The translations under genes and the position numbers were made by a program. From positions 24,655-84,496 of the forward strand of contig CAZIPM010000003.1 of NCBI GenBank assembly GCA_964541395.1: 59,842 nucleotides of DNA. Reading direction: 5' to 3'. The notes below the pieces were generated by a model that was not told the DNA's origin, ran no database searches, and saw only the letters and a program-made list of their open reading frames with translations. How positions within the stretch are numbered: position 1 is the first letter of the stretch; each line of letters begins with the position of its first letter. Source of the stretch: an uncultured Gammaproteobacteria bacterium. Lineage in GTDB: Bacteria > Patescibacteriota > Microgenomatia > UBA8517. Below, piece after piece: positions 35,175-54,218 of this stretch.

Positions 35175-35801
35175 GAGGATAATCACTTTTAATACATATT
35201 GAATGTAATTTAAAAGATAAATATTGGAAGTCATCATCAGTAACAGTTTACTTTTACTGGTTTTTGCTTCAATAGTGTAACCTAACTGCAAACAGATCTC
35301 AAAACCCCTGTTTTAGCTATAAAATCGAACGATTTACCTGTTAAAACCGGCAAAAATATCGCTTTGTGCGTGATGATCTATTATGGGTTCAAAAGAAAAT
35401 AATATGGATTTCCCAGAACGAATTAGTAATAATTTAACGAAATTAACACTTGAACTATTATATTACCCGCGTAATAGTACCGTAAGATAGGTACTATACA
35501 TCAACATCTTCAGTATTATTTTACCATAACCTATAACAAGTTGGTTGCACTGATATCGTTGTTACGCTCTGAAATATAAGCTATATATAGGATTATATAA
35601 TTAGTATAATAAAAACTATATAATAAAAAGTATATAAATTGTATAAAAAATTACATAAAAAGATTACATAATACTCATTTCTTCTGAATAACAAGATACA
35701 CTTTATCTGTAGTCTTTTCACACAACAAAAGTATGACCTTTTTTAACCCTTGACAGTATTAGTATAACCTTTTAGTCTTTATATAGATCACTTTTAATAA
35801 C

Positions 35802-37577: not shown

Positions 37578-40500
37578 TTACACGATTATCTTCTTTTTCT
37601 TTTTAAACCTAGAGGCAAACTTTTTAAGAATTGGGTAAAGGCCAAGAAGCAGAAATGGATTTTCAGGAACAGTAGTAAATTCAGGTATAACCGTATAAGT
37701 ATCAAGCAGACCACCACCCGAGGTAATAACCCGCACACAGTATGCAACACCATTTGAGGCTGAATTATCAACAATTGTAATATCCCACTTTCCGTCATTT
37801 CCTGCAGCGATTGAGTTTATACCTGTAAAGTTATTTGATTCTTCATATGTTTGGAAATTTATTGTATGACCACTATGTGTAGGGTCACTACCGGTTGGCG
37901 TCATACTAGATCCATCGGTTGGAGTCGGGTTGTCATAAAATCGGATAACTCCCGCTGAAGGAGACAGATCAGCATACGTCTCACCTGAAAAAGCGGTATC
38001 ACACGTACCGCTTCTCTCGGCAATCTGAATTTTAAAATCATCTCCTGTGCCGTCAAATTGGTTACCACCTACATGCAGTAAGAATCTTAGCCTTATTACC
38101 TGGCCGTCAGCTGTCATATCTGCTGCTGTGTCTTGAGCTGCCAGATCAGGACCTATTGAAGTTGAATCAAGGTTTTGGAAAAATCTGTATGCCGATTGAT
38201 TAAAGGTGGTAATTACTTTTTCTCCATACCATGAAAATCCACTGTCCCCCCCTGAAGTACTTTCATACCAGTATCCGTATACTTTATTGCCTCCGTTTCC
38301 TGAGGAGTGGGTAAATAGTTGGCCTTTTAGATATTCTAATGTTAATTGGTCAAGTAGGTTTGTATCTGTGGTCCATCCACCATCGTTTATTGCCGCGTCA
38401 TAATCAAGATCTGCGTCGTTGGTCGGAGAAAATATCGAATACTGTTTATCGGTTACCGAATCTACAACCAAATCAGCTACTGGTTGGTTACTGGAAGTAC
38501 CGGTAGGACTGTGGCGGATTCCCGTTGCAGAAATTTGTTTTCTGGCTCCGGGAGTACCGTTTGTCAGGGTTACGGAATAGAGTATCGAATCGGAATTATC
38601 CATCACACCCAGCATTATTTTTTCATTTCCTGTGCCTTCTTCGGTCCAATATACCGCAGGGGTTGTTGCCCAGCTATTGGTAGTTGCCTGAGCGTCAGAT
38701 TCTATCGTTGTGGGACTTCCACTTAAAGAATCTGCAGATGTCAGGCTTTTATATAGTACGTCTTCATTTGTATCATCTTTGTAAAAAATGTGTGTCTTAT
38801 CACTTGCTCCAAGTACAGCTCCTGAATAAACAAAATTAGTTGATGCCGTAGTATCCAGATTGACTTGCGTACCCCAAGGTGGTCCACTACTGGGTCGAAT
38901 TTTATAACCCACTCTTTGATTGGTACCGTCACTATATCGGTAAAAAACGACTACTGTTCCGTCACTCCGCTTTATTATTCCACAGGTTTGGTTAGCAGGA
39001 GCGGTACCCGGAGTTACTACAGCCTCATCCACAATCCCCCAAGTATCAGAGTTTGTGGAATGATCCGACAATCTAAAGGTGTGGTAAGTTACATTTAGAC
39101 TACCTGTTCCTTCCTGTACACAAATGTGTAACGTATCCCCACTTTGAAAAACATCAACACCCTCCAGATCATTTACTGTAGGACTGCCGGAAGTTCCTAC
39201 CAAATCCCAGTTTTTGCCTCCATCGGTCGATTTGAGCATTTCAGGTTCATTATTACCGGTCCCTGCAATATATGTAGGTTCAATCATAAAATATAGATTG
39301 CCGTTTGTATCCTTAAATGGTCCTGCCCTGCCAGTTGTTTCCATCATTGAAGGACTTAAAAAATAGTCGGGCATATTGACTGTAATTCTTGGATTCATCA
39401 TAATTCCTGTAAAAAGCGTGCCTGCACTTTCCGATAATCGGAATTCCAACTGATTATTATCTTTCATCCTGTTTGGACCACCCCAAGTACCTAAAATCAT
39501 AATTGTAAATTCATATTCAGCATGTTCATTGGAGATTGTTATGGCACCCGTTGTACGGTTCTCTTCTCCAGTTCCTCCGGTATCAAACGTCTCTGCACTT
39601 CCTGCTAATATATTTTGGTTGGCTGCGTCTCCATCGGCATATTGATTTGAATCAAGAACCTGTAACGGACCATCATAACCGGCTTCAGCCCGGTCGGGTG
39701 AATCTGCCCAACTACCCCACAATCCCGTACTCGTTCTAAATCTATATTGTAATTTCCAAGACGTGCTACTCCCTGTTCCGTTCGGCTGCTCAACTTCAAA
39801 TCTAATACGAAATCTTTTACCTGCGTCCATTGTTGCATAGGTATTTAGATCTGCAGCCCAGCCGACAGTATCATTTAAAGTTAATGTGTCATCACTTCTG
39901 ATTCGGTAATAGGGCTGATGATATCCTCCCGTAGTTGCAGTTACTATTAACGGACAATTATCGTATGAAGAAAGAGCAGTCCCGGCATCGGAAATCCTAA
40001 AACGGTATACTGTACTTTGAAAGGATCCGGTTCCTTGAATCGCCCATTCCCATTCCGATTGTGTTTCGTTTAAAGCAACACCGGTGGTGTCTTCATTTTG
40101 TGTATCAAAAATGTTGCCTGCAGTAAACGTTTTGTTTGACGTGGTAAGCTGGTTTGTAGTAGCATCATCATTTGTGATATTGCTTGAATTTGTCACTCGC
40201 CAGGCTGTAGTGGATGTATCAAGTGCGGTCCAAGTTCCATTATTGCAGTTAGTTGCATCCGTAGAATATTCAAGACGGGCGTTTAAGGTCATTGAAACAG
40301 TACTGTGTGCTTCAATTCTCAATCTTATAATTTCTGTGGGGCCGACATAGTAGGCGTCGGTATTTTCATCATCTTTCCAAGTTGCTGTTGTCTCACTCCC
40401 ATCATCCGTACGAAATCTGTGTGAAGTTTGAGAAGTAGCTGTCGGTGACCTAAGAGCAATTGACATCATCCCCTTTAAGGTATTCCCTGTATACGTTAAA

Positions 40501-43500
40501 ATTGTATTCCCATAGTTTCCTGCAGTGGCTTTCTGTCCGTCAAAAATCGATAATCCTCCGTCATTACCTACCGTTGATGAAGCTGTAATTCGCGCGGCAG
40601 AAATGTTAGCCAGATTCCCATTTGAAATAGATGTTATAGGTAATGCAGTATCAATGTCTGCGGTACCTACAATTACGACAAGTCGGTCAGCTCCACTTGT
40701 TGAAGCTCCCGGTTCAGCTCCTGAAGTATCGGATGACGAATCAGTATTCCCACTTGTTACATCCCAAGGATTTCCCGACGTTTCAATACCTGTCCAGGCA
40801 CAGATTGCTCCGATTTGATGATTACCTGAGTCAGATACTGTCGGAGCAGTTTGTGTTCCATTATAACGACTCCAGAATACTGTCAATCTGGTTCCCGTTA
40901 CGCTTTGAGGGCTATTTGTCACTTCAGTCCAAGTTCCACCGGCACTGTCGCTGACTGTTATAGCTTGGGCATCTGTTTCTATAAACAGAAGGAGTATATC
41001 GTTGGTAGTCAGCCCGGAAGGTAATGGTGCACTTACAGCATTTACTGAGGCAAATTGTGTTCCACAAGCCACAAAAGTTGGCAGTGCAGCGAGTGTTTCA
41101 CCTATTCTGGGTGGAAATCGAGGTTTATTCCAGATGATGGGAAATCCTGATAATAACCATGATGCAATTAAAGATGAAATTATCACTATCTTAAAAACCT
41201 TTTTGAAAGTTCTCTTGTTTCTTCTGGCAAAATATATTAGAACAAATACTGTAAATACTACAATTAATAGAAGTATAATCTTCAATGTTTCCATCGAAAC
41301 CTGGCTAACTCCACTAACGACCACTTTTTGCACCACCTCTGCACTGGCTAATGCGTCTCTGGGTGTGAATGATTTAAACAAGCTGGCCATGGAATGGTTT
41401 TCCTCCCCCATCCTTTCAACTCTGACTTGGACAGGAAGATCAGATATTGATCCTGTTTTGACACTCATTCCAAGGTAAGAAATTGTCACTGAAGAGACTA
41501 GAAGTACAAGTAATACTAAATTGCCAACATACCTATTCATCTTAGGTTTTATAGAAAATGAGTCAAAAGTGTTATGAGCAGTTTTAAGTTCTAAAAAATT
41601 CATATCCAAAGCGGGAATTTTGTTGGGAATAATCCCTTGAATAAATCGGTAAAATTTTCCCCGGATGAAAGTATCCGTTATTCTTCCTGTTTTAGGTGTC
41701 CTGAACCAAGGTCCCTCATGTGATTGGATGAATCCTTTGACAGCAGAATATGCCTGGAAAGGAGCAACCAAATATGAAAGGGCTATAAATGAGCCAAGAC
41801 CGGAATAGTCTTTATGTTCCGACTCCTCCAAAAATAGGCCAACTGCATTAGTCAGGGGAAGAGAAATCATATTAGTTAAAACCAAACTCCAACCCCAAAG
41901 TTCAGTCCAAAAGGGCAAACGTACTTTAAAGATAGCTTCAGATACCAACCAGCTGAATGTTCCAATCAAAAAAAACAGTGCTTGAAGATAGTATGGAGTT
42001 AAATAGATAAGTTCAAATTTTTCAAAGATTGATAAATGATTTGAAAAAAGAAGCTTGAAAAACATCTTTTTAACATTGAATGAATGCCCTTCCGCCCAAC
42101 GCATTCGTTGTCTTATTAAGCGGTTTAATGTAGACACACATTCGGCAGGTGCCTGAATGTAGGGAGTGTATAAAACCTTGAAGCCTTTTTCATATAACTT
42201 TAAAGTGAGTTCAAAGTCTTCAGTAATAGAAGATCCCCAACCAACACTCTCTAATGCATCCCGTCGTATCATATAGACAGATCCTGAAACCTGCTTTAAT
42301 CCCCCATAAATTTCAATTCCTGAGCGTTCTACTATATATGAACCGGCATATTCGGATCTGACACCTCTTGTTATCCAGTTTTCAGATTTATTAAGAACAT
42401 GCCATTGGTAGCCTTGTACAACTGCAGTTTTCGGATCATTTTGTGTTTGGAAATATTTCAAAAATAAAGTCAAAGTGTCAGGATACGGTACAAAATCTGC
42501 ATCAAATACTGCAATCTTTTCGGTTTTAGGATCAGATAAACTAAGAGCCAGTTTGAGCGCTTGTCCTTTATATCCGCTCCTTGTATTTCTATGAAGATGT
42601 TTGAAGGTTACTCCAGGCTTAACTTCGATTTCTGTCATCTCCCAACCATCTCCGTTTGTCACCGTCAAACTTTCTTCCTTAAAAAGGTATCGTTTTTGGT
42701 AGTTTTTAATTAATTCACTTGTTTCATCTGTCGAATCGTCTGCTAAAATAATTTCATAATTCGGATAATCAAAAGAAGTTAAAGCTTGGGATAATCTTTC
42801 AACAACATTTTTTTCGTTATATAAAGCAACATGAACAGAAACAAATGGCTTATTTATAAGAACTATATTGTCGAGGTTTGACTCAAGCCCTAATATCTTT
42901 GAATCGTTTAAATTCTTATTACCTAACAACCAATTTAGTAAACTCCCCCTTATACTTTCTTTAATATTTTTCTTTTTTAAATCTTGTTGGGAATATGAAA
43001 GAACTATGGCAAGGGTTAGATAATATTTAAGTGAATACAAAAAGAAAAATGATCCCATAATTAGTGATATTCCTGCGAACATCATCCCTACTGAATTAAT
43101 AATTGGTAATATCTTAAAAATCGTTAAAAATATAAAAAGGCTAAAATATGAAGACAAAATGAAGTAAAGCCATAATTTACTTCTTTTGAGAGGTGGAGCT
43201 GGTGCTACATTTGGTACAAACTGTTCTGTAATAGATCTATCTCTATCAATAACTTGTGATTCTGTAGCCGCAACAGGTTCAGTGCGATGTGATACCGAAT
43301 ATGCCATGCGATTAGACATTTTATTCAGATTGTTCCTGTCCATTATTTTCCAGATAGTCCAACTTGATACCTGAACTATCCCTGCAATTTGCTTTGCAGT
43401 TAAATTGGGATTATTTACTACCATAGATAGTACTTCCTCTTCAATCCTCGGATATACTGCTTTGTGGTGGTCATCTCCTCGTCTGTATTTATCTAAATAT

Positions 43501-44000
43501 TCAATATTACTTTGATAGTCTTTTACCCATTTATATATAATGTTACGGGAAACATTGTAATTTCTTGCTAGCTCAGATACGTTTCTCGAATCCTGAAGGC
43601 ATTTGGTCACTATTTCCTTTTTAACATCAGGCTTAAATCTACCAGGGCCTAAATAGTTTCTGCAATAGTTGAGCCTAGTATATTCATCAGTTAACCCTAA
43701 TTTATTTAAATAATTCTGTACATCAAATGAACTTATATGAAAATTCATTTCCCTAAGATGAGTAGAATATTGCTCAGAAGTAAATTTAGGAGATTTACAT
43801 ACCAGTCGTATCAGAATCTTATATACTTTTTTGTCAAACAAAGTAGGTTTAGGCTCTGGTGATTTACTATTTTTTGAATCAACCAGGCATTTATATATAG
43901 TACCCCTGGCTACATTATATTCTCTGGCCAGAGAGGCTATAGAAGCTTGTTTGACTTCAAGTCTTTTTAATATATCCAGTTTTGAATAGGCAGATAACAT
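37578..44000 (-). CDS. Giant 2: fusion of HTH(x3)-TM-processive GT2 synthase-TM-ectodomain-VPENP C-terminal sorting signal; no adjacent exosortase
   Basis: 2140 aa.
- HTHs at aa 1-235: YNVARGTIYKCL, YNVSRNIIYKWVKDY, VSSWTIWKIMDRNNL.
- GT2 at aa 384-639 (nt 42084-42851): ADDSTDE, VFDADF, SITEDFE, RQRMRWAEGH.
- Extra TM pair near aa 880-950 (IILLLIVVFTVFVLIYF, then VIISSLIASWLLSGFPII).
- Ectodomain with the Asp-box KSTDGGKNW (39207-39233).
- C-terminus TVPENP-FLLLGLYPIL-KKFASRFKKKKKIIV. Confidence 0.88.
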   Translation of the reverse strand: MLSAYSKLDILKRLEVKQASIASLAREYNVARGTIYKCLVDSKNSKSPEPKPTLFDKKVYKILIRLVCKSPKFTSEQYSTHLREMNFHISSFDVQNYLNKLGLTDEYTRLNYCRNYLGPGRFKPDVKKEIVTKCLQDSRNVSELARNYNVSRNIIYKWVKDYQSNIEYLDKYRRGDDHHKAVYPRIEEEVLSMVVNNPNLTAKQIAGIVQVSSWTIWKIMDRNNLNKMSNRMAYSVSHRTEPVAATESQVIDRDRSITEQFVPNVAPAPPLKRSKLWLYFILSSYFSLFIFLTIFKILPIINSVGMMFAGISLIMGSFFFLYSLKYYLTLAIVLSYSQQDLKKKNIKESIRGSLLNWLLGNKNLNDSKILGLESNLDNIVLINKPFVSVHVALYNEKNVVERLSQALTSFDYPNYEIILADDSTDETSELIKNYQKRYLFKEESLTVTNGDGWEMTEIEVKPGVTFKHLHRNTRSGYKGQALKLALSLSDPKTEKIAVFDADFVPYPDTLTLFLKYFQTQNDPKTAVVQGYQWHVLNKSENWITRGVRSEYAGSYIVERSGIEIYGGLKQVSGSVYMIRRDALESVGWGSSITEDFELTLKLYEKGFKVLYTPYIQAPAECVSTLNRLIRQRMRWAEGHSFNVKKMFFKLLFSNHLSIFEKFELIYLTPYYLQALFFLIGTFSWLVSEAIFKVRLPFWTELWGWSLVLTNMISLPLTNAVGLFLEESEHKDYSGLGSFIALSYLVAPFQAYSAVKGFIQSHEGPWFRTPKTGRITDTFIRGKFYRFIQGIIPNKIPALDMNFLELKTAHNTFDSFSIKPKMNRYVGNLVLLVLLVSSVTISYLGMSVKTGSISDLPVQVRVERMGEENHSMASLFKSFTPRDALASAEVVQKVVVSGVSQVSMETLKIILLLIVVFTVFVLIYFARRNKRTFKKVFKIVIISSLIASWLLSGFPIIWNKPRFPPRIGETLAALPTFVACGTQFASVNAVSAPLPSGLTTNDILLLFIETDAQAITVSDSAGGTWTEVTNSPQSVTGTRLTVFWSRYNGTQTAPTVSDSGNHQIGAICAWTGIETSGNPWDVTSGNTDSSSDTSGAEPGASTSGADRLVVIVGTADIDTALPITSISNGNLANISAARITASSTVGNDGGLSIFDGQKATAGNYGNTILTYTGNTLKGMMSIALRSPTATSQTSHRFRTDDGSETTATWKDDENTDAYYVGPTEIIRLRIEAHSTVSMTLNARLEYSTDATNCNNGTWTALDTSTTAWRVTNSSNITNDDATTNQLTTSNKTFTAGNIFDTQNEDTTGVALNETQSEWEWAIQGTGSFQSTVYRFRISDAGTALSSYDNCPLIVTATTGGYHQPYYRIRSDDTLTLNDTVGWAADLNTYATMDAGKRFRIRFEVEQPNGTGSSTSWKLQYRFRTSTGLWGSWADSPDRAEAGYDGPLQVLDSNQYADGDAANQNILAGSAETFDTGGTGEENRTTGAITISNEHAEYEFTIMILGTWGGPNRMKDNNQLEFRLSESAGTLFTGIMMNPRITVNMPDYFLSPSMMETTGRAGPFKDTNGNLYFMIEPTYIAGTGNNEPEMLKSTDGGKNWDLVGTSGSPTVNDLEGVDVFQSGDTLHICVQEGTGSLNVTYHTFRLSDHSTNSDTWGIVDEAVVTPGTAPANQTCGIIKRSDGTVVVFYRYSDGTNQRVGYKIRPSSGPPWGTQVNLDTTASTNFVYSGAVLGASDKTHIFYKDDTNEDVLYKSLTSADSLSGSPTTIESDAQATTNSWATTPAVYWTEEGTGNEKIMLGVMDNSDSILYSVTLTNGTPGARKQISATGIRHSPTGTSSNQPVADLVVDSVTDKQYSIFSPTNDADLDYDAAINDGGWTTDTNLLDQLTLEYLKGQLFTHSSGNGGNKVYGYWYESTSGGDSGFSWYGEKVITTFNQSAYRFFQNLDSTSIGPDLAAQDTAADMTADGQVIRLRFLLHVGGNQFDGTGDDFKIQIAERSGTCDTAFSGETYADLSPSAGVIRFYDNPTPTDGSSMTPTGSDPTHSGHTINFQTYEESNNFTGINSIAAGNDGKWDITIVDNSASNGVAYCVRVITSGGGLLDTYTVIPEFTTVPENPFLLLGLYPILKKFASRFKKKKKIIV
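37581..37673 (-). other. C-terminal tripartite sorting signal of giant 2 (IPEFTTVPENP motif, hydrophobic helix, poly-K tail)
   Basis: TVPENP FLLLGLYPIL KKFASRFKKKKKIIV. Nearly identical to the giant 3 signal. Confidence 0.6.
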
Positions 44001-44229: not shown

Positions 44230-45345
44230 ATGATAATTAACAGGAAGATTGAGCCTGCTATAATAAATAGACTTTTTCAAGGAAAAGTTATAGTAATCTA
44301 TGGTCCAAGGAGATCAGGTAAAACTACTTTAGTCAAAAATATTCAAGGAATGTATCATTCGGAAAGTATATATTTAAACTGTGACGAACCTGACATACGC
44401 CAAGCTTTAACAGATAAAACATCTACTGAACTTATAAATTATGTCGGTAAGAATAGACTGGTAATAATTGACGAGGCTCAGAGAGTTAAAAATATCGGAA
44501 TTACACTAAAACTTCTGGTGGATAATTTTCCGCAAACTCAAATTATAGCCACAGGCTCCTCATCTCTTGACCTTTCAAATAAAATAAATGAACCTTTAAC
44601 GGGACGTGTACTTGACTTTTTCCTACCTCCTTTTTCACTTAAAGAGATATCTGAAGATAAAATTGAAGCTATAAGAAATCTTGAACAAAGAATGATCTAT
44701 GGAAGTTACCCTGAAGTAGTGATGGATATCAAAAATGCGGAAGAAAATATTAGAGAAATATTTAAAAAATATCTTTACAAAGATGTATTAGAATATCAAG
44801 GGATTAAAAATCCCGATGTACTGGAGAAACTTTTAACAGCTTTGGCTCTTCAGATCGGATGTGAAGTTTCTTATCCTGAGCTTGCAACGCTTCTCCAGAT
44901 TGATCAAAAAACTGTAGCTTCGTATGTACGACTTCTTGAATTTGCATTTATTATTTTCAGATTACCTCCACTTTCCAGAAACCTCCGTAAAGAAATTGCC
45001 AAATCAAGAAAGATATATTTCTGGGATTTAGGCATTCGAAATGCAGCAATAAATAACTTTAATTTGTTGGAAATGAGATCAGATGTTGGAAACTTGTGGG
45101 AAAGTTTTTTAGTCTCAGAAAGAATGAAAACAAACCAAATCCTAAGAAAGTTTCCAAATAAATATTTCTGGAGAACTTGGAGTAAAGAAGAAATTGATTA
45201 TATTGAAGAAGAAGGTGGAACTTTTAGTGCTTTTGAAATTAAATGGTCAAAATCAAACAAAAAACCATCAAAAGTGTGGACTGATGCATATCCAAATTCA
45301 GATTGGAAAGTAATTACAAAAGAAAACTTTTTAGATTTTATTTGA
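44230..45345 (+). CDS. AAA+ ATPase with DUF4143/PD-(D/E)xK-like C-terminus (COG1373 type)
   Basis: 371 aa. Walker A IYGPRRSGKTT, Walker B LVIIDEAQ, C-terminal EIDYIEEEGGTFSAFEIKW. Its 3' end overlaps the convergent exosortase gene by 15 nt. Confidence 0.85.
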   Translation: MIINRKIEPAIINRLFQGKVIVIYGPRRSGKTTLVKNIQGMYHSESIYLNCDEPDIRQALTDKTSTELINYVGKNRLVIIDEAQRVKNIGITLKLLVDNFPQTQIIATGSSSLDLSNKINEPLTGRVLDFFLPPFSLKEISEDKIEAIRNLEQRMIYGSYPEVVMDIKNAEENIREIFKKYLYKDVLEYQGIKNPDVLEKLLTALALQIGCEVSYPELATLLQIDQKTVASYVRLLEFAFIIFRLPPLSRNLRKEIAKSRKIYFWDLGIRNAAINNFNLLEMRSDVGNLWESFLVSERMKTNQILRKFPNKYFWRTWSKEEIDYIEEEGGTFSAFEIKWSKSNKKPSKVWTDAYPNSDWKVITKENFLDFI

Positions 45346-45921
45346 ATTTTTGTAGTCAATAAATTTTTCATCCAGAACATAAGTATAGCTAAACCACCAG
45401 AATGTGATCAGCCAAATAAGTGTTAGAAATGCAGCAAAGTAGTCATGAATTATCTGAGCTGCAAGCGAATTGATGTAATAAATTCCTATGGCTATAATAC
45501 TCATCCTGAAAATGTTAAGAAGAAGTGTTCCAAAAAGACCCAGTGCTACACACTTTGCTCTAGATAGATTAGTATAGTTACCTTTAAGACCAGCAACCAA
45601 AGAAACAATGAGAAGCAAAGCTGACTGCCAACCCAAACAGTTCCAAGACAGATCAACAGGTATACTTGTCCCTTTCTTAATCATATAGAAGGTTGAAAGC
45701 CTGGAGTTGGGAGTTACCCTTGAATCAATACCAAATGGAGAAATGGCAACTGCCACCATTCTTGCCTGCCAAGGAACTATATACTTTTGAATCGGACGCC
45801 ACCAACCTGCATGATTTAACCCTTCCGTAAAAAAAGAATTCATTGCAGCAAAAACAGGAAGAAGTGTCATGACAATTACAAATCCAGCCAAAATAGTTTT
45901 GAATGTTTTCTTTTGTTCCAT
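45331..45921 (-). CDS. Minimal exosortase/archaeosortase-family protein (putative transpeptidase for giant 3 and probably giant 2)
   Basis: 196 aa with about 5 TM segments. Motifs: WNCLGWQS (CxGxxS), LLNIFRM (NxxR), IHDY (His). It shares PIQ..IVP, C[IL]GWQS, NIFR and IWL..FWW with the 28318..28884 product. Its start lies 3 nt after the giant 3 stop. Confidence 0.65.
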   Translation of the reverse strand: MEQKKTFKTILAGFVIVMTLLPVFAAMNSFFTEGLNHAGWWRPIQKYIVPWQARMVAVAISPFGIDSRVTPNSRLSTFYMIKKGTSIPVDLSWNCLGWQSALLLIVSLVAGLKGNYTNLSRAKCVALGLFGTLLLNIFRMSIIAIGIYYINSLAAQIIHDYFAAFLTLIWLITFWWFSYTYVLDEKFIDYKNSNKI

Positions 45922-45924
45922 AAC

Positions 45925-48900
45925 TTATAGTACTGCTTTCTTTTTCTTCTTTATTCTTTTAATCAGTTTATTAAACAAAGGATAAAGACCAAGAAGTAGT
46001 AGTGGATTTTCAGGAACAGTTGTAAATTCCGGAACTACTGTATATGTTTCAAGAACCGAGTTATCAGATCTAACTACTCTTAAGCAGTAAGTGGTATTGT
46101 CTGCTGCTGCATTATCTTCAATAGTAAAGTCCCATTTACCATCTTCCCCTGCTCCAATTATAGCTTGTGAATTAGTAAAGTTGTTTGCTTCTTCATATGT
46201 CTGATTTCTATTTGTATGACCATGCGTGGGATCATTGGTATTATTGGTTAGTGCTGCGCCGTCAGTAACTCCACCTCCGTTATTATCAAAGTATCTAATG
46301 TTTCCGGATGAGGGAGATAAATCGGAATATGATTCGTCGGTAGTTCCCATATTAGTGTCACATGTTCCTCCAACTTTGGAGGCAATTTGAATTTTAAAGT
46401 TATCACCCGATGATGCTAATTGGCTTCCTCCTATATGGAGCTGTAATCTCATTCTGATGACCTGACCATCTGATGTCATCCCAGCAGCGGTATCTTGGTT
46501 GGCAAGTACGGCACCGACATCTGTAGAATTGTTGTTATAAAAAAATCGGTAAGTAGATAAATCATAATAAGTAACTACTTTTTCATCATAACGAGCAAAA
46601 CCCGTTGCACCGGCGGACCCGTCGTCCCAAACATAACCAACAACTTTCGCGCTACCGTTACCGGCACTATGGGTAAACAACTGCGCCCGGAGCCAATCGG
46701 CTCCATTCGTCGGATCTTTTTCCTGAACATCCGTAGTCCAGCTCCCGGATACCCGGGTATCGTAATAGATATCATCGGCATCCGTACTATTAGCAAACAA
46801 CGCATGGAGCTTGTCTGTTGCATCATCCGCCGCGATGTCTGCTATCGGTTCTCCGTTTTGTCCCTCCTGAAACTGTATCGCCGCGTCGCTGACCACGGTT
46901 TCGGAGGGAGACGGTGTATCTCCTATCGCCCAGGTGGAAATGTATAATTTGTTGTCATCGATATCCCTGTACGAAACACCAACCCGTTCCGTGGCTCCAT
47001 CTGTCCAATTGATAAGCGGCGTGAGATCCGCATAATCGCTAGACGTGCTCATGTTGGCGGTAGAGGGGCCATTGATGAGTACCCGTCCGTTGAGCACATC
47101 GCCGGTGGTAAGTGTTTTGACATATATATTGAGTTTACTGCTTGCCATGGCGGTATAGACGATATGGATCCTGTCGGTTGAGTCCCGTATCACGGCAGCT
47201 GCTAAGGTATCGGTCGATGCCGTGGAATCCAGGCGGATCGGAGCCGCCCACGTCCCTCCGGAAGAGCGGATGCTGTACCAGAGCTGTTCATTGGACCCCG
47301 ATAATGCACCCCGGTAAACAGCAATCGTGGTACCGTCACCCCGCCGCACAATTGCGGCTTGCTGCGCGCCAGGGCTCACATCTTCGATCAATTGGTCATT
47401 CACTGCCCAGGTATCCGGGGTCGTAGCATGGGTGGAAACGTTGAACTCATAGTAATTAGCCGAATCACTGTTGTTCGGGCCCTGCATGGTAATATAGAGC
47501 GTATTCCCCCGCAGATCCATATCCGCAGCTTCCAGATCGAACTCCTGGGAAGCAGTGGAAACCCCGACCGGGTTCCATGAGTCCCCGCCGTCCGTTGACT
47601 TCATCATCGCCGGACTGTTGCTGCCGCTGCCGGTTTGGATATCTGTATACTCGGACAGATAATAGAGATTTTTGTTGCCGTCGACAGCAAAGTAGCGCAT
47701 CGGCGTTTCCATTACCGATCCGCCGATATGGCCGACTCTATTGGAAATCGTGACCGTCGGCGTTTGACTGTAGGTCGTGAGTATCCCACCACCAGAGCGG
47801 CGGAGCCGGAATTTATAGGTCGTCCCATCGGCATTGTGCCCCTGCTCTTCGTAGAGTTTGCGCATCAGGACCGGAAATTCGTATTCCGTATGTGAGGGGT
47901 CTGTAAAGGATACCGACGCTGCCTGATAATCTTCACTCCCGGTTCCGGCGATAAAAGTTGCAGCACTTTGGGACAGCAGGTTAGTTGTGGCCGCGCCATC
48001 GACAAACTGCGCAGACGGGATAACCTGCGCCCCCCATTGCCCGCTGGTGGAACCCGCTGCCCAGGGGGTTGCATTATCCGGACCCCGCCGATAGTCGCCG
48101 TCATTTCTCGAGTACCATAACTCAAACCCTGAAGCGAGTGCGCCGCCGCTGGGGCGTTCGACTTCGAGGCGGATACGGAAATCGTAATCCGGATTGATAC
48201 TTGCGTTTGAATTAAGCGTATTTGCCCAGTCTGCATCGGCATTGGCACTGAGCGCCTTACTGTCATCCGCCCGGATCCGGAACGCGGTCTGAGAAAACGT
48301 CGGGGTCGAGGTGCCGTTCATCCGTATTTCCGCACCCAGTCCGATCCAGTTGGCGCTCGTCGGCGACCAGCTGGCACTGCCGGTTGTTTCGAATGCATCA
48401 CCTCGGTATTGCGTTTCCAACGCCTTGCCCGGATTGGATGTAGCCAGATCATCAAGCTCTGTCCAGTTAGTCCGGAATGTCGTTGCTTCATTGACAGGAT
48501 GGGCAAAGGCGGAAATTGGCCGGTTGTTGGAATCCTGAGCTGAAGCAAAAGGGATCGACCCGCTGGTTGCGGCTGTACCGGTAGCCCGGGCCAGCTGCAC
48601 AAACGCTCCAGAGACGCCGTTTGTTAAATCGACTCCGGAAACGGAAAAAAAGCTCGCAGCCAGTCCGGCCTGCGTAAAGTTCCCGAAATCAAACGTAACC
48701 GTACCATTTTGGGATCCGCTTGCCGCGGCGGCATACAAAAACAACCGTTCCCGATCGAGATATACTTCGTCGATAAGCGTATACGTAATGTTCTGTGTAT
48801 TGGTCACGGTGGGAACCGGTGGACGTTTAGAGGTCGGCGCATGCGCCAGAACAAATACGATAACCATGCCGGAAGTCGGCGGGGTCCAGGCACTGGATTC

Positions 48901-51900
48901 ATACGTCTTGGAATCAGTGCCGGTGTTGATGTCCCCGCTCTGATTGGTAAAAGCCAATGCATTAGTACTCACTGTAAATGTTGGTGTGGCTACAATTTGA
49001 CTTGCTCCGACAAGAGCTGTTGCGGGAATAGTTGCAGTTATAGTTTCCTGAGCGGTTATATTATAAGAAGCAAAAGCGTCAAGTGTAATAGTTACCACAG
49101 TATCACTTGTCCGGGCGACATTTGCTACACTGATATTATTTTTTACGATAGTATCCCAGCCGGTTCCTTCAGATTGAGCTGAGTCTAAACCGGATCTAAT
49201 TTCATCCCGTTGATTATCAAATGTTGATCCGGATGCGACCCAGGTGGTTCCTGTTAGGGTCAGAATAACTGTCTTACCCCCGGTGACGATATCTGATTCA
49301 GCTATACTCGCTGTCACCGTTCCGGTAAGCGCAGCTGTTGGTTCATAAATTGCTGCCAAAATTGTAATTGGGTTTGTATTTGTCCAACCGGTCGACGTAA
49401 CAGTGTCAGAAGTAAGAGTCGCAATACGTGTTTGCACATGTGTGGCTATATTAATATCGAGAGCTCCTGTAGTTGAAGTTATTGTATCAATCCTCTCGGT
49501 ATAGTCTGCATCAGCCGCCTTGGCTGCATCTTCTCCTTCTGATGCCGCAGCTCCAATAAGTAAATACTCACGGGATGGAAGTGAAGAAACTGAAGCTGAT
49601 ATTGCAGCTTGTCCTACTCCGACTTGTTCAATAGCCCAACCTGTACCGTTACCGAAAGTTGCTTCAAAAACCGAAATAATTTTATCGACTTTGGCTGTGC
49701 CCAAAGTCAATGTTATTGAGTCGGTGGTATCGATCTGAGTTGTGACCTTTGTCGCAAACAATCCTACAGTTGAACCATCATCTGCTGCTCCATCTGTTTC
49801 TGTATACTCAGCAATTCTGGTCCAGGTATGCCCGTCTGTATCGGAAATTGAATGCAGTGTACTTGCACCGTCTGCTGTCTGATTATTGTCTGAGGCAGTA
49901 GCAACAAATGCTATTTTACCGACTGTGATATTGGCATCGGGAGATACTGCTACAGTCGTACCGCTTGCATCGTTTGTGTCAGCAAATCCACGGACAGTTA
50001 CGGCTGAAATGGTGGCTTTTGCTTCTTCAATTTTAGGTGGAAATCTGGGCTTATTCCAAAAAACAGGATAGCCTGATAATAACCAGGAAGCAATTAGACA
50101 AGACACAACCACTAATTTAATTGCCCTCTTGAATGTTCTTTTGTTTCTTCTGGCTAAAAATATTAAGGCAGACAATGTAAATATAACGACTAAAGCCAGA
50201 GAAACTTTCAGAGTCTCCATTGAAACCTGTTTGACCCCACTGACAACTATTTTTTGTACTTTGTCCGCACTGGCCAGAACTTCAGTCGGTGAGAATAAAT
50301 TTAACAAAGAAGCCGTAAAATTGCCTTCATCTCCAACCCTTTCTACTCTGGTTTGAATAGGAAGGTCTGCTATTGATCCAGTCTTTATGGTGCTACCCAG
50401 ATATGAAAGTAATATCGATGATAATACTGAGATTATTACAACGAAATTACCAATCAGGCTGTATTTTTTGGGCATAATTTTAAAGGAATCAAATTTACTG
50501 TTGGCTGTTGTTAAAGCTAAGTATTTATAGTCCTCCTTCAGTTCTCCATTAGAACCAATTGGTTTAACCGGCAAGATGCCTGAAATGAAGCGGTAAAATC
50601 TACCTCTGGCAAAGATGTCAGTAATTCTTCCTGTTTTTGGAGTTCTGAACCAAGGACCTTCTTCTTTTTCGATAAATCCTTTAACTGCTGCATATGCCTG
50701 GAAAGGTACTATTATATAGGAGAGGGCCATAAAGCTGCCCAGTCCCAGATAGTCTCTTTCATCCGACTCCTCCAAAAATAACCCTACGGAGTTAAGAAGA
50801 GGAAGAGAAATCATGTTGGTTAAAACCAAGCTCCATCCCCAAAGCTCGGTCCAGAAAGGCAAACGCACTTTAAAGATGGTTTCCGAAATTAACCAGGATA
50901 GAGTTCCTACCATAAAAAACAAGGCTTGAAGGTAATATGGAGTTAAATAGACAAACTCAAATTTCTCAGCTTTGCTAAGATTGGGATTAGTCAAAAGTTT
51001 GCTAAACATCTTTCTGACATTAAAAGAGTGCCCTTCTGCCCAACGCATTCTTTGTCTGATCAGTCTCTTAAGTGTAGAAGCACATTCAGCGGGTGCCTGG
51101 ATATATGGAGTGTAAATTACTTTGTAACCTGCATCATATAATCTTAGGGTCAGTTCAAAGTCCTCTGTAATAGAAGTCCCCCATCCCAGTTCTTCCAGTA
51201 CATCCTTTTTGATCATATAAACGGAACCTGATATTTGTTTTAATCCTCCATAAATTTCAGCACCCGATCTTTCTATGACATAACTTCCTGCATACTCCGA
51301 TCTGACTCCCCTGGTTATCCAGTTTTCAGATTTATTAAGAACATGCCACTGGTAGCCCTGAACAGCCGCTGCTCTTGGATCATTCTGTGCCTGGAAGTAT
51401 TTCAAAAACAAAGTCAGTGAATCAGGGTAAGGCACAAAATCAGCGTCGAATATCGATACTTTTTCGGTTCTGGGATCAGATAATTTTAAGGCCAAATTTA
51501 AAGCGCCACCTTTATAACCGGATCTTGAAGATCTATGAAGATGTTTCAGGGTTACTCCCGGCTTAACTTCAACTTCTGTCAGTGTATACCCCTCCCCTTT
51601 AGTAATTTTCATTTTTTCTCCCTCAAACAAATACCTTTTCATCCTGGTTTGAATAATTTGGGTAGTCTCATCTGTTGAATCATCACACAAAATAACTTCA
51701 TAGGCAGGATAGTCAAACGAAACAGCTGCATGGATGGATCTTTCCACAACATTCTTTTCGTTATAGAAAGGAATCTGGACCGAAATAAAAGGTTTTTTGG
51801 TAAGCTTGATATGAGAAAGATCAGCGGTCAAACCAACAGATGTCTCATTTCCTGTTTTATTCTTTTTAATCAGCCAATCAAGCATGCCACCCGATGCCTG

Positions 51901-52632
51901 ATCAATAATTTTTCCTTCTGTCTCCTTCTGTGAGAATGACAAAACCAAGGCCAAAGTAAAATAATACTTTAAAGAATAAAGGAAGAAGAACGAACCCATT
52001 ACCAATGCCGTTAAGGCAAATGTAATTCCTATTTTATAACCCAGACCACTTCCCGCAGCGTCTCCGTATGCATAACTGCCGATTCCGGCTATTACAATAG
52101 TAGTAAAGAGACTGAGGCTGAATATTGAAAACAATTTGATATAAATATGCCTTTTTTCCGCCGGTATTTTGAAGAAGTCGGAAACTGATACCAGGATTTT
52201 TTCGATAAAGCCGACAACCTGAGTATGTTGACCTGTGGCATATGCCTGTCTTGATTCATAAAGTGAAAGGTTGTGCCTCCTTAAGACGTTCTGTACTCCA
52301 TGATGTCCCACAATTGGCGAGTTTCCTATCTTGGGAAGGTTTTTAACCAGAGTCCTGATGCCCCATTCGGGATGTTGTGAAACCAATGAAAGTATTGATT
52401 CTTCATACTTATCCGGGGTTTGATGCCAATACCTATCAATTATTCTTTCTCTATTAACAAGTTCTGCTTCACCACTAGTCTTTTGTTCTTCTTCCCTCCT
52501 TTTGAGCCACTTATAGATGGTCACCCTACTTACACCATACTTTTTGGCAACTTCAGAGATACTTTGCTTCTGATCTAATACCTCAGAAATCATTAAATTT
52601 CTGGCTTTTGGTGACAGTTCGTTTGGTACCAT
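45925..52632 (-). CDS. Giant 3: fusion of IS481-like HTH module-TM-processive GT2 synthase-TM-ectodomain-VPENP C-terminal sorting signal
   Basis: 2235 aa.
- HTH module at aa 1-130: YGVSRVTIYKWLKRREE ... PEWGIRTLVKNLP ... HGVQNVLRRHNL.
- GT2 at aa 280-535 (nt 51028-51795): CDDSTDE, IFDADF, SITEDFE, RQRMRWAEGH.
- Extra TM pair as in giant 2.
- Asp-box KSTDGGDSW (47575-47601).
- C-terminus TVPENP-LLLLGLYPLF-NKLIKRIKKKKKAVL. Confidence 0.88.
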   Translation of the reverse strand: MVPNELSPKARNLMISEVLDQKQSISEVAKKYGVSRVTIYKWLKRREEEQKTSGEAELVNRERIIDRYWHQTPDKYEESILSLVSQHPEWGIRTLVKNLPKIGNSPIVGHHGVQNVLRRHNLSLYESRQAYATGQHTQVVGFIEKILVSVSDFFKIPAEKRHIYIKLFSIFSLSLFTTIVIAGIGSYAYGDAAGSGLGYKIGITFALTALVMGSFFFLYSLKYYFTLALVLSFSQKETEGKIIDQASGGMLDWLIKKNKTGNETSVGLTADLSHIKLTKKPFISVQIPFYNEKNVVERSIHAAVSFDYPAYEVILCDDSTDETTQIIQTRMKRYLFEGEKMKITKGEGYTLTEVEVKPGVTLKHLHRSSRSGYKGGALNLALKLSDPRTEKVSIFDADFVPYPDSLTLFLKYFQAQNDPRAAAVQGYQWHVLNKSENWITRGVRSEYAGSYVIERSGAEIYGGLKQISGSVYMIKKDVLEELGWGTSITEDFELTLRLYDAGYKVIYTPYIQAPAECASTLKRLIRQRMRWAEGHSFNVRKMFSKLLTNPNLSKAEKFEFVYLTPYYLQALFFMVGTLSWLISETIFKVRLPFWTELWGWSLVLTNMISLPLLNSVGLFLEESDERDYLGLGSFMALSYIIVPFQAYAAVKGFIEKEEGPWFRTPKTGRITDIFARGRFYRFISGILPVKPIGSNGELKEDYKYLALTTANSKFDSFKIMPKKYSLIGNFVVIISVLSSILLSYLGSTIKTGSIADLPIQTRVERVGDEGNFTASLLNLFSPTEVLASADKVQKIVVSGVKQVSMETLKVSLALVVIFTLSALIFLARRNKRTFKRAIKLVVVSCLIASWLLSGYPVFWNKPRFPPKIEEAKATISAVTVRGFADTNDASGTTVAVSPDANITVGKIAFVATASDNNQTADGASTLHSISDTDGHTWTRIAEYTETDGAADDGSTVGLFATKVTTQIDTTDSITLTLGTAKVDKIISVFEATFGNGTGWAIEQVGVGQAAISASVSSLPSREYLLIGAAASEGEDAAKAADADYTERIDTITSTTGALDINIATHVQTRIATLTSDTVTSTGWTNTNPITILAAIYEPTAALTGTVTASIAESDIVTGGKTVILTLTGTTWVASGSTFDNQRDEIRSGLDSAQSEGTGWDTIVKNNISVANVARTSDTVVTITLDAFASYNITAQETITATIPATALVGASQIVATPTFTVSTNALAFTNQSGDINTGTDSKTYESSAWTPPTSGMVIVFVLAHAPTSKRPPVPTVTNTQNITYTLIDEVYLDRERLFLYAAAASGSQNGTVTFDFGNFTQAGLAASFFSVSGVDLTNGVSGAFVQLARATGTAATSGSIPFASAQDSNNRPISAFAHPVNEATTFRTNWTELDDLATSNPGKALETQYRGDAFETTGSASWSPTSANWIGLGAEIRMNGTSTPTFSQTAFRIRADDSKALSANADADWANTLNSNASINPDYDFRIRLEVERPSGGALASGFELWYSRNDGDYRRGPDNATPWAAGSTSGQWGAQVIPSAQFVDGAATTNLLSQSAATFIAGTGSEDYQAASVSFTDPSHTEYEFPVLMRKLYEEQGHNADGTTYKFRLRRSGGGILTTYSQTPTVTISNRVGHIGGSVMETPMRYFAVDGNKNLYYLSEYTDIQTGSGSNSPAMMKSTDGGDSWNPVGVSTASQEFDLEAADMDLRGNTLYITMQGPNNSDSANYYEFNVSTHATTPDTWAVNDQLIEDVSPGAQQAAIVRRGDGTTIAVYRGALSGSNEQLWYSIRSSGGTWAAPIRLDSTASTDTLAAAVIRDSTDRIHIVYTAMASSKLNIYVKTLTTGDVLNGRVLINGPSTANMSTSSDYADLTPLINWTDGATERVGVSYRDIDDNKLYISTWAIGDTPSPSETVVSDAAIQFQEGQNGEPIADIAADDATDKLHALFANSTDADDIYYDTRVSGSWTTDVQEKDPTNGADWLRAQLFTHSAGNGSAKVVGYVWDDGSAGATGFARYDEKVVTYYDLSTYRFFYNNNSTDVGAVLANQDTAAGMTSDGQVIRMRLQLHIGGSQLASSGDNFKIQIASKVGGTCDTNMGTTDESYSDLSPSSGNIRYFDNNGGGVTDGAALTNNTNDPTHGHTNRNQTYEEANNFTNSQAIIGAGEDGKWDFTIEDNAAADNTTYCLRVVRSDNSVLETYTVVPEFTTVPENPLLLLGLYPLFNKLIKRIKKKKKAVL
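45928..46020 (-). other. C-terminal tripartite sorting signal of giant 3
   Basis: VPEFTTVPENP LLLLGLYPLF NKLIKRIKKKKKAVL, read from the translation. Confidence 0.6.
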
Positions 52633-52886: not shown

Positions 52887-54218
52887 CTACTTGATCTTGT
52901 AGAGTATATCCCCATTTTTTTCCCAGACTTTGTCTCCCAATTTGCTCCATTTAAAGGAATTTCTGAAGTCATGGTAGTACTCCCAAGAAGTATTGGTATG
53001 CACCAGCATATATTCGATGCCTGTTTTGTCTAACCAGATCTTTGTTTCCGTCAGACCGGATCCTTCCCTAAATTCATAGGCAGCTTTATCCCATATCGGA
53101 TCTAATGCCACCTGATCTCTACCTCCCCTTAATTGTTTTATATCAAAATAACTATTAGCCCAAAACACGCTAGAACCTGAAAGGAATACTTTCCTGTCAC
53201 CAACCACCTGATAAACGGAGGATAATGTATCTTTTAGATTGTAATCGTTTGAGTACAAAAAGCTGAGCCTGTAGACCGTATAAATTGGAAGAACAAATAA
53301 TGATAAGAACTTTTTGTTTACCAGAAAAAGAAGTAACAGTGCTATTTCCAATTCATAAAAATAAATACTCCAATCCATAAAAAAGTCCATATCACCCACA
53401 AACCGGAATAAAGTTAAAAACAGAAAACTGAAAACCCAGGTATAAGTAAATTTTTCCAAGTTGGTTAAGATTTTTTTCTGCCATAATACGGCAACAATAG
53501 CCAAGGCTACCGGTAAACCTTCCCTGACGTAAGACAGAAGCCTCAGAATCGCTTTCAGACCTGATGTACCCCCTACTGAGGGGTTGGTTAGGATGGCAAT
53601 CCAATATCCTGGGGTATACCAAATTGTGACAAATGCTAAAGAATATAAAACCAGGCTAAGATAACTTTTCAGATATTTAAATTTCTCTGCGGCGGAAACC
53701 GCCAAAAGACCTATCAAAACAAACGGCAACACTGATGTATTGATTAAAAGTAGCATGGATAACAAAGTGAAGGACAGGTATTTTTTCTTCAGGTAAAATA
53801 CCCAGAAAACAAAAGGAATTAGGTTTCTGGCAATCACCAAAGTTGCCTCCCCGTAAGTTAAGGCGTAAAACATCCTCCAGGGAAGTAAAATTGCAATTAT
53901 GATAAATAAAACTTTAGTTACTTTTTTGATATTCGGATTTAATGAAACAACCAAATAGTACCAGCCTATAACAGAAAGCAAAAAACTTAATACTATTAAA
54001 CAGATCGTAATATTAATAAACGATACATCTCCCAATAGATATTTTATTAGAACCTCAACCACAGGCACAATCGGTCCAATAAAGAATTTAAAGGGTGTTG
54101 TTCCGTTATACCAATACGGGTAATTGGAGATAAATGCAGAGATACCGTTCTCATATAGATAACGTGTCAGTGCTGCTGTCACCGGAATGAATGAAGTTTG
54201 ACTTAAAAATGTTTCCAA
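52887..54218 (-). CDS. Polytopic membrane protein (hypothetical; possibly GT-C-like) with a soluble C-terminal domain
   Basis: 443 aa. It has a TTG start and no nearby in-frame ATG. The motif NYPYWYNGTTPFKFFIGPIVPVV is reminiscent of the PFWYP..GGG proteins at the left end. It has about 10 hydrophobic segments. Confidence 0.65.
   Translation of the reverse strand: METFLSQTSFIPVTAALTRYLYENGISAFISNYPYWYNGTTPFKFFIGPIVPVVEVLIKYLLGDVSFINITICLIVLSFLLSVIGWYYLVVSLNPNIKKVTKVLFIIIAILLPWRMFYALTYGEATLVIARNLIPFVFWVFYLKKKYLSFTLLSMLLLINTSVLPFVLIGLLAVSAAEKFKYLKSYLSLVLYSLAFVTIWYTPGYWIAILTNPSVGGTSGLKAILRLLSYVREGLPVALAIVAVLWQKKILTNLEKFTYTWVFSFLFLTLFRFVGDMDFFMDWSIYFYELEIALLLLFLVNKKFLSLFVLPIYTVYRLSFLYSNDYNLKDTLSSVYQVVGDRKVFLSGSSVFWANSYFDIKQLRGGRDQVALDPIWDKAAYEFREGSGLTETKIWLDKTGIEYMLVHTNTSWEYYHDFRNSFKWSKLGDKVWEKNGDILYKIK

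Follow-up and report, generated by a model that had tools for sequence, protein, structure and literature searches.

Introduction

Exosortases are, to our knowledge, widespread, and we know of no acceptor for the bacterial enzymes and of no explanation for their recurrent link to polysaccharide loci. A preprint by Haft describes tripartite sorting signals, dedicated one-to-one systems in which enzyme and target are encoded by adjacent genes, and the Cys/Arg/His triad of the enzymes (10.1101/2023.06.07.544157). Archaeosortase A and its PGF-CTERM signal are experimentally supported, the C-terminal helix being removed and a lipid attached (10.1101/2023.06.07.544157). Our literature search returned no paper linking exosortases with Patescibacteria or the candidate phyla radiation (CPR), and none on XrtX or XrtY. 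Here we analyse a stretch of 59,842 nucleotides from contig CAZIPM010000003.1 (hereafter the window, meaning the whole stretch). The window encodes three giant proteins (G1, G2 and G3) in which a family-2 glycosyltransferase (GT2) is fused to a long ectodomain, and each giant ends in a tail made of the motif [VI]-P-E-x, a hydrophobic segment and a cluster of Lys and Arg. Small exosortase homologues (mini-exosortases X3 and X1) are encoded directly after G3 and G1. We consider it probable that Microgenomates (CPR) possess a dedicated sorting system of the exosortase type, which targets the GT2-fused giants and recognises them by this tail.

The PEP-CTERM/exosortase systems (XrtA, XrtB; TIGR02595, TIGR03109) resemble the one described here in their tripartite signal, which starts with V-P-E and continues with a hydrophobic segment of ~16 residues and a basic cluster. 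They also share the enzyme superfamily with its Cys, Arg and His residues, and the recurrent link to polysaccharide loci. However, our tails never have Pro as the fourth motif residue, their basic cluster is rich in Lys, and their hydrophobic part is rich in Leu, Phe and Pro with a P-x2-P element, whereas that of PEP-CTERM is rich in Gly, Ala and Leu. The enzyme here has ~190 amino acids, whereas theirs has about eight transmembrane (TM) helices (TIGR03109 spans 261 positions). Moreover, the enzyme here stands approximately one-to-one with an adjacent target, in contrast to the many targets per genome in PEP-CTERM systems, and the hosts are Microgenomates rather than the organisms of the original description.

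PGF-CTERM with archaeosortase A of Haloferax volcanii is alike in enzyme superfamily and catalytic residues, but differs in motif, in enzyme subfamily and in its targets, which are S-layer glycoproteins with signal peptides and not polytopic synthase fusions. In the case of PEF-CTERM with archaeosortase C (TIGR03024, TIGR03762), ArtC is the best specific match of several mini-exosortases (24-37 bits) and a minority of the family tails read [VI]PEF right before the hydrophobic part; yet both enzyme and signal remain far under the cutoffs, and the PEF of G2 and G3 is a strand of a domain. The XrtG- and XrtP-associated systems (TIGR03110/TIGR03111; NF053846) likewise combine a small exosortase with a processive-type GT2. 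Their glycosyltransferase models are among the matches of the giants' GT2 module, and XrtG is a weak match of X3. However, all of these scores are far under cutoff, and here the GT2 is fused to helix-turn-helix (HTH) domains and a giant ectodomain and itself bears the signal. Lastly, in the dedicated one-to-one systems VPEID-CTERM/XrtE and JDVT-CTERM/MrtJ the enzyme and its single target are consecutive genes, as here, and JDVT-CTERM has a conserved helix-breaking DP within its TM segment that is comparable to P-x2-P. Their motifs are nevertheless different, and MrtJ belongs to a different enzyme family.

Results and Discussion

Three giant proteins share a C-terminal tail

The initial annotation had reported that G2 and G3 end in (V/I)PEFTTVPENP followed by a hydrophobic stretch and KKKKK, and had read this as a tripartite, exosortase-type C-terminal signal. 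Translation confirmed the sequence, and tails of motif, hydrophobic part and basic part were found at the C-termini of the giants and of their homologues. G3 ends in YTVVPEFTTVPENPLLLLGLYPLFNKLIKRIKKKKKAVL and G2 in YTVIPEFTTVPENPFLLLGLYPILKKFASRFKKKKKIIV; in both, YTV[IV]PEFTTVPENP is followed by a short hydrophobic stretch and then KKKKK. G1 ends in FTFVPEKSIWLFPIALFLPKIIPGIKKKWILYRKGKIAIKR, a variant tail with VPEK that has the same design as G2 and G3 with different residues. The idea that G1 lacks a signal was ruled out, as its tail scores 27.5 bits with the tail hidden Markov model (HMM) described below. The giants and their tails are as follows.

45925..52632, minus strand: G3, 2235 amino acids; HTH, two TM helices, GT2 (Glyco_trans_2_3), TM bundle, ectodomain of ~1370 amino acids, signal (Pfam, NCBIfam)
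46021..46044, minus strand: YTVVPEFT, end of the last immunoglobulin (Ig)-like ectodomain module of G3, outside the signal, with PEF at 46024-46032 (kept in tail-less homologues; AlphaFold2 strand E197-T199)
45928..46020, minus strand: sorting signal of G3, T-VPEN...AVL (translation; tail HMM 42.8 bits; AlphaFold2)
46006-46017, minus strand: VPEN of the G3 signal (translation)
45973-46005, minus strand: hydrophobic part of the G3 signal, PLLLLGLYPLF (translation)
45937-45969, minus strand: basic part of the G3 signal, KLIKRIKKKKK, followed by AVL (translation)
37578..44000, minus strand: G2, 2140 amino acids; architecture like that of G3, with two HTH modules (Pfam)
37581..37673, minus strand: sorting signal of G2, TVPENPFLLLGLYPILKKFASRFKKKKKIIV, with VPEN at 37659-37670 (translation; tail HMM 39.4 bits)
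28881..35291, minus strand: G1, up to 2136 amino acids; HTH-GT2-TM module and an unrelated ectodomain (Pfam); translation probably begins at a later ATG
28884..28997, minus strand: sorting signal of G1, VPEK-SIWLFPIALFLP-KIIPGIKKKWILYRKGKIAIKR, with VPEK at 28986-28997 (translation; tail HMM 27.5 bits)

Positions 45928-46020, where the initial annotation had placed the whole motif, encode exactly TVPENP...KKKKKAVL of G3 (31 amino acids), and (V/I)PEFT falls outside them, at 46021-46044. G2 and G3 are ~40% identical across their C-terminal ~800 amino acids, and 27 of 39 tail residues are identical, with 20 of 22 identical in the motif and hydrophobic part. The tail is therefore much better conserved than its surroundings in these two proteins. 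The ectodomain of G1 is unrelated to those of G2 and G3.

The signal at family level

A search with the last 350 amino acids of G3 recovered eight metagenomic or metagenome-assembled genome (MAG) proteins from Microgenomates and Woesebacteria that bear the tail (P0002-P0007, P0009 and P0010), in the form Y-T-V-[VI]-P-[EQ]-F-T-T-[VI]-P-E-N-[PS] with a hydrophobic stretch and K/R. Scanning 185,579 species genomes for mini-exosortases gave 13 loci, and at 12 of these a large open reading frame (ORF) beside or near the exosortase gene ends in [VI]-P-E-[N/K/S/Y/R] followed by hydrophobic and K/R residues. A metagenome scan added at least 400 relatives, from which 80 loci were kept. In the protein database the enzyme forms at least 313 clusters, which, if named, are called only 'exosortase/archaeosortase family protein'. 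Moreover, a related complete Woesebacteria chromosome, OY970314.1 (982,852 bp), appears to have the arrangement of the window, with three tail-bearing giants and two mini-exosortases in ~40 kb.

Alignment of 65 non-redundant tails, which is gap-free except for one long insertion in one sequence, defines the family signal as [VI]-P-E-[N/K/R/F/Y], ~15-16 hydrophobic residues, among which two Pro are conserved (PE-x9-P-x2-P), and a Lys/Arg cluster. Counting from the Pro of PE as position 0 (n = 65), position -1 is Val in 33 tails and Ile in 25, positions 0 and +1 are Pro and Glu in all 65, and position +2 is Asn (26), Lys (12), Arg (8), Phe (7) or Tyr (5) and never Pro (0/65). Pro stands at +11 in 41 of the 65 and at +14 in 47. 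The stretch between +2 and the basic cluster is rich in Leu, Phe and Ile, and the K/R cluster starts 16 residues past PE in 39 of the 65 tails. The invariance of PE is partly by construction, since the seed tails were picked with a regular expression that requires PE; PE is also present in non-seed tails recovered by the HMM, by the ectodomain search and by the exhaustive search. Only 11 of the 65 tails share the second Pro of VPENP, which is specific to a subfamily.

The initial annotation had called the hydrophobic segment unusually short. This holds for G2 and G3, whose uncharged run is 11 residues, but not for the family, in which 15-16 residues from PE-x to the basic cluster is the mode and roughly agrees with the length that fits the 24-position PEP-CTERM model.

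A 36-position tail HMM built from the 65 tails separated family members cleanly: 75 of 2536 ORF C-termini (loci and window) scored at least 22.5 bits, and the next score was 7.2 bits. The HMM was used in place of the regular expression, which missed APEK, APEF and FPEK variants and tails with an extension of 45-55 amino acids. Such an extension is found in L054, L058 and L066, which at first seemed to lack the motif; they read VPE[YA]-ALxLAPLxxxxPKI followed by a C-terminal extension of 45-55 amino acids. An exhaustive search of 1.84 billion representative proteins (E<=0.001) with a narrower profile, made from the window tails and those of homologues, returned 16 proteins, one a low-complexity false match and 15 real. 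All 15 match at the C-terminus or within ~17 residues of it, and they include two complete giants of 1899 and 2330 amino acids with the architecture of the window giants. The tail profile gave 444 candidates and 1 match against a word-indexed database of 5.8 billion proteins, an index type that is ill-suited to short hydrophobic tails.

Since G2 and G3 are paralogues, the likeness of their tails might reflect chance or a recent duplication and carry no functional signal, and the initial annotation had itself named absence of the motif from orthologues as a mark of chance similarity. Homologues bear the tail in metagenomes and MAGs that are independent of one another, dozens of metagenomes in all, where it is attached to unrelated ectodomains. 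Together with the far better conservation of the tail than of its flanks and the clean gap in HMM scores, this makes such an origin extremely improbable.

Most of the 13 genome loci are labelled Woese-, Gottesman-, Chisholm- or Daviesbacteria; the labels also include four MAGs of Gammaproteobacteria or Pseudomonadales and one 'Ca. Caldarchaeum'. L008, L009, L011 and L014 (binchicken MAGs labelled Gammaproteobacteria or Pseudomonadales) contain cassettes typical of Microgenomates, with up to 60% identity to X3, and the taxonomic labels of these records look wrong. The contig labelled Ca. Caldarchaeum (JAWBJZ010000010.1) holds a minimal cassette (L017 9656-12419), in which a 294-amino-acid exosortase homologue is followed by a 653-amino-acid GT2 protein. 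The latter is 48% identical to the GT2 of G3, ends in DIPENTLLVAATPALLILYYVIANRRKK and has nearly no ectodomain. This locus reflects either a horizontal transfer between CPR and archaea or a mis-binned contig.

Linkage of the tail to a mini-exosortase

The enzymes encoded beside the giants of the window are listed here with their putative catalytic residues.

45331..45921, minus strand: mini-exosortase X3, 196 amino acids, multi-TM, beginning 3 nt past the G3 stop (TIGR04178 31.1 bits, cutoff 23)
45637-45639, 45505-45507 and 45445-45447, minus strand: Cys95, Arg139 and His159 of X3 (alignment)
28318..28884, minus strand: mini-exosortase X1, 188 amino acids, overlapping the G1 stop by 4 nt, with Cys93, Arg137 and His157 (TIGR04178 36.4 bits, cutoff 23)

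X1 and X3 are 30-34% identical, and the Cys, Arg and His residues (Cys95, Arg139 and His159 in X3) are invariant in an alignment of 15 diverse mini-exosortases. G2 has no adjacent exosortase of its own; its tail type is shared with G3.

The initial annotation had suggested that such tails should co-occur with mini-exosortase homologues. Linkage was counted per locus, on fragmentary contigs and at loci ascertained through the enzyme. Among 93 exosortase loci, 51 have an ORF matching the tail HMM that ends -22 to +264 nt upstream on the same strand, and a further 16 have a tail ORF elsewhere, mostly one or two genes upstream and sometimes directly downstream. Seven loci lack upstream sequence and 19 lack a tail ORF. 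A tail ORF is thus present at 67 of 86 evaluable loci, directly adjacent at 51, and with X3 and X1 in the window the suggested co-occurrence is borne out at locus level.

In a motif-agnostic test, in which ORFs were chosen by position, PE with hydrophobic and basic parts was present in 51 of 77 adjacent upstream ORFs compared with 2 of 408 other ORFs of at least 150 amino acids. The linkage was also checked in reverse: all six tail proteins that were found by their ectodomain and have downstream DNA (P0002, P0004, P0005, P0006, P0007, which corresponds to L024, and P0009) have a mini-exosortase within two genes downstream. The tail is near one-to-one with the mini-exosortase, and likewise with the GT2 module.

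Some loci carry mini-exosortase genes in tandem pairs (L010 2750-4247, L054 2872-4089 and L072 340-1573). In three others a beta-lactamase-like serine hydrolase lies between giant and exosortase (L007 767-1747, L062 3809-4780 and L080 1935-2894); these share the motif SDCGI[IV]Y.P.RPY, with a Pfam Beta-lactamase2 match at the L007 locus (the same as L004).

Signal and enzyme compared with named classes

Following a suggestion of the initial annotation, we scanned the tails with the existing CTERM models, using NCBIfam release 20. Of 38 tails covering all subtypes, none matched a CTERM model at E<=10. Synthetic control tails scored well above the cutoffs of their classes: PEP-CTERM 37.4 bits (cutoff 16), PGF-CTERM 50.4 bits (cutoff 24.5), PEF-CTERM 40.2 bits (cutoff 23) and VPEID-CTERM 45.7 bits (cutoff 33). 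PEP-CTERM TIGR02595 (at least 16 bits), PGF-CTERM TIGR04126 and VPEID-CTERM/XrtE TIGR04161 (at least 33 bits) were all unmatched by the 38 tails, as was PEF-CTERM TIGR03024 (at least 23 bits), even with six VPEF-type tails included. The VPXXXP-CTERM/ArtB model was also unmatched in any scan; its own control tail failed to retrieve that model, so this negative is weaker. By direct reading, V-P-E-N-P of G2 and G3 has a spacing of 2 and not 3. The view that the signal equals no single named class is supported, less firmly in the case of VPXXXP-CTERM. The only matches of the family tails were weak: one family tail resembles the C-termini of two PEP-CTERM protein families (E 0.13-0.23), and the G3 tail gave a spurious hit to a phosphofructokinase model (E 0.027, 12.9 bits).

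Similarly, X3 and X1 approach no named subfamily cutoff (XrtX, XrtY, XrtG, XrtM, CrtC), and ten mini-exosortases from the loci match the generic signature only. Their best scores are at most 37.4 bits for ArtC TIGR03762 (cutoff 100), 25.5 bits for XrtX (cutoff 170), 22.4 bits for XrtG (cutoff 102.75), 12.2 bits for XrtY (cutoff 160) and 17.8 bits for ArtF (cutoff 150). XrtM, XrtK and the other named mini-exosortase models also gave nothing above their curated cutoffs, and a sequence search of the PDB with the exosortase profile returned no solved relative. Judged by sequence, enzymes of the X3/X1 type probably form a new mini-exosortase subfamily.

These comparisons bear on whether the tail might be a divergent form of PEP-CTERM (or PEF-CTERM), a class already named. 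The V-P-E start and the similar layout and length would fit this, as would the weak matches to the two PEP-CTERM families; for PEF-CTERM one may add the tails that read VPEF directly before the hydrophobic part, and ArtC as the best specific match for several of the enzymes. However, no tail reaches TIGR02595, TIGR03024 or any other CTERM model while controls score 37-50 bits, Pro is never found at the fourth motif position, and the enzymes reach no more than the generic signature. We therefore regard membership of a named class as improbable. Our best reading is that the signal represents a new class of exosortase-type signal, mainly restricted to Microgenomates.

PEF belongs to the ectodomain

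The initial annotation had further proposed that the signal is a composite of a PEF and a VPxxP element. This we reject, as tail-less homologues, AlphaFold2 domain boundaries and Pro counts all speak against it: PEF lies in the upstream beta-sandwich domain, the second Pro is confined to the 11 tails noted above, and the family motif is [VI]-P-E-x, which is PEP-CTERM-like. The homologues P0050, P0056, P0066 and P0075, which lack the tail, keep the module end Y-x-V-x-P-[EQ]-[LIF]-[TN] and then diverge, and P0001, tail-less with respect to this type, likewise keeps Y-x-V-x-P-[EQ]-[LIF]. AlphaFold2 modelling of the last 230 amino acids of G3 (mean predicted local distance difference test score 77.8) gave a beta-sandwich with its last strand at E197-F198-T199, a coil at V201-N204 and a helix that begins with P205, extends as far as residue 229 and is interrupted at Y212/P213. 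Moreover, in other subfamilies [VI]PE-x follows straight after unrelated sequence, for example in ...NWDYIIIPERIW..., ...SSLQIPENLL... and ...WGVSVPENLW.... Foldseek with the last ectodomain module of G3 retrieved generic Ig-like sandwiches only (TM-score <=0.39).

P0001 (453 amino acids) shares the last ectodomain module of G3, which is followed by ~35 more residues, a PEP-CTERM-like 'LPEP', a long hydrophobic stretch and RR; this tail was matched by no NCBIfam model. In another lineage this ectodomain module is thus joined to a sorting signal of a different kind.

Architecture of the target family

The N-terminal two-fifths is common to all three giants and consists of one or two transposase-like HTH domains, two TM helices, the GT2 and a TM bundle. 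By NCBIfam, the GT2 module is nearest to the processive synthases PgaC/IcaA, CelA/BcsA and NodC, with all scores far under cutoff, and it also matches, again far under cutoff, the 'XrtP-associated' and (in one relative) 'XrtG-associated' glycosyltransferase models. The closest solved structure is BcsA. In G3, RRNKRTFKR lies on the N-side of the TM helix ahead of the ectodomain and KKKKK on the C-side of the last helix, and the region of ~1370 amino acids between them should therefore be extracellular.

Every complete tail-bearing ORF of more than 650 amino acids has the HTH-GT2-TM module, with a GT2 44-78% identical to that of G3, and the ectodomains vary widely in length (ORFs of 653 to more than 3,100 amino acids) and in sequence. 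Conversely, the tail is found in 31 of 39 GT2-module ORFs in the loci, and another 5 are cut off at the 3' end by the end of the contig; L054 and L081 have variant tails, and L051 alone is without one. A non-dedicated system, with many unrelated targets per genome that each have a signal peptide, was not found, the targets here being polytopic with one shared module. Consecutive genes for enzyme and target, together with a single target family, make this a dedicated system in Haft's sense (10.1101/2023.06.07.544157).

The N-terminal ~250-450 amino acids of the giants hold one or two transposase-type HTH domains (the IS481/IS3/IS630-like DNA-binding part only) in frame with the membrane GT2, and this fusion is kept in nearly all full-length relatives. 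The giants may thus be glycan synthases that hold a DNA-binding domain at the membrane.

A proposed mechanism and its main rival

We propose that the giants are arranged, from N to C, as a cytoplasmic transposase-like HTH, a processive-type GT2 synthase with its TM bundle, a long variable beta-sandwich ectodomain and the signal. The [VI]-P-E-x motif would lie at the outer membrane face, the Pro-kinked hydrophobic segment of ~15 residues would span the membrane and the Lys/Arg cluster would be cytoplasmic. By analogy with ArtA and PGF-CTERM, the ~190-amino-acid exosortase homologue encoded just downstream would use its Cys, Arg and His residues to recognise PE, cleave there and remove the C-terminal anchor. 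The new C-terminus would then be transferred to an acceptor in the envelope, either a lipid, as with archaeosortase A, or a glycan made by the GT2. X3 would serve both G3 and G2, which have the same tail type, and X1 would serve G1. Cleavage, its site, transpeptidation and the acceptor are thus what we infer from the archaeal system.

Given that the substrate is a synthase of the processive type, one may speculate that the glycan which it makes is also the acceptor. In this extended form the locus would be a self-contained unit of synthase, cargo and sortase, in which PE is cut and the C-terminus of the ectodomain is ligated to the glycan extruded by its own GT2 (or to a lipid), yielding glycan-tethered giant adhesins. 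We hold this to be unlikely.

The main rival is that the tail is an unprocessed membrane anchor which pins down the far end of the ectodomain, the exosortase homologue acting elsewhere or as a non-proteolytic partner of the GT2. The giants are already polytopic and need no sorting to reach the membrane. The minimal 653-amino-acid protein of L017 keeps the tail with almost no ectodomain, suggesting that the tail serves the synthase rather than the cargo, and, judging from model names, the small exosortases XrtG and XrtP are known to have GT2 enzymes as neighbours. However, a simple anchor would not need a conserved P-E that keeps a constant spacing to the basic cluster (seed tails had to contain P-E, but it is present in non-seed tails too). 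Nor would it account for a design that copies PEP-CTERM-type signals, for the invariant Cys, Arg and His of the neighbouring enzyme, or for the tight coupling of the genes by a 3-nt gap or a 4-nt overlap. We accordingly give the unprocessed anchor a fairly low probability.

Several points nonetheless weigh against the proposal that the tail is a recognition signal for the mini-exosortase. The N-terminal TM module would still hold the target in the membrane once cleavage had taken place, and the gain from removing the anchor is not evident. The case for cleavage is one of analogy with ArtA/PGF-CTERM. The hydrophobic part of G2 and G3 holds just 11 uncharged residues, and ~20% of exosortase loci show no tail, many of these being short contigs or having other genes upstream. 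Lastly, the exosortase was the starting point for collecting the loci, and the seed tails of the HMM were selected for PE, a bias that the motif-agnostic and reverse tests lessen but do not abolish.

At these loci the link between exosortases and polysaccharides is physical: the substrates belong to one family alone, in which a GT2 synthase of the processive type and its surface domain form a single protein, and the minimal enzyme of ~190 amino acids is encoded next to it. Such a compact two-gene system is suited to heterologous tests of cleavage site, acceptor and enzyme requirements. Were glycan ligation to prove true, this would be the first exosortase substrate that is a glycan synthase itself, and it would point towards a glycan as the long-sought exosortase acceptor. 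The three giant genes make up ~20 kb of the 60-kb window, and genomes of the host group measure ~1 Mb. This investment, together with the hypervariable ectodomains, makes the giants strong candidates for the cell-surface and host-attachment apparatus of Microgenomates. Moreover, genes that are now 'hypothetical protein' or generic 'exosortase/archaeosortase family protein' could be given names with the help of the tail HMM and the alignment of the enzymes.

Neighbouring genes

A multi-TM protein of 440-480 amino acids, encoded at 52887-54218 in the window and ending in the conserved ...VVHT..S.E[FY]YHDF...GD.IY, has no Pfam or NCBIfam match. It recurs beside the cassette elsewhere (L008 3442-4893, L009 11017-12462, L016 4476-5891 and L082 5032-6477) and may be a third cassette component. 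The ORF-poor gap of ~1 kb upstream of G1 contains a small HTH protein (35802-36107, plus strand), MerR-like by the look of its sequence and ending in ...LRRRLFP.FK...; it is kept near cassettes in L082 (6947-7309) and L094 (2570-2896). Scans of the window for tRNA and Rfam families gave no match.

Four paralogous ATPase genes (AAA_14 + DUF4143; 26983-28242, 36294-37421, 44230-45345 and 58312-59628) are interleaved with the cassettes, one after each. The window also encodes a cohesin-domain protein (54261-55091), a GH39-like hydrolase (55742-57106), a protein with LysM and M23 peptidase domains (57111-58193) and an AbiEii toxin fragment (16244-16855). A membrane protein of 1098 amino acids (1316-4612) matches PF10131 (PTPS_related), a family that is also tied to XrtG systems. 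The remainder of the window from 1 to 28 kb is a glycan-biosynthesis cluster with GT4 glycosyltransferases, methyltransferases, a carbamoyltransferase, PMT_2, an epimerase and a UDP-glucose dehydrogenase.

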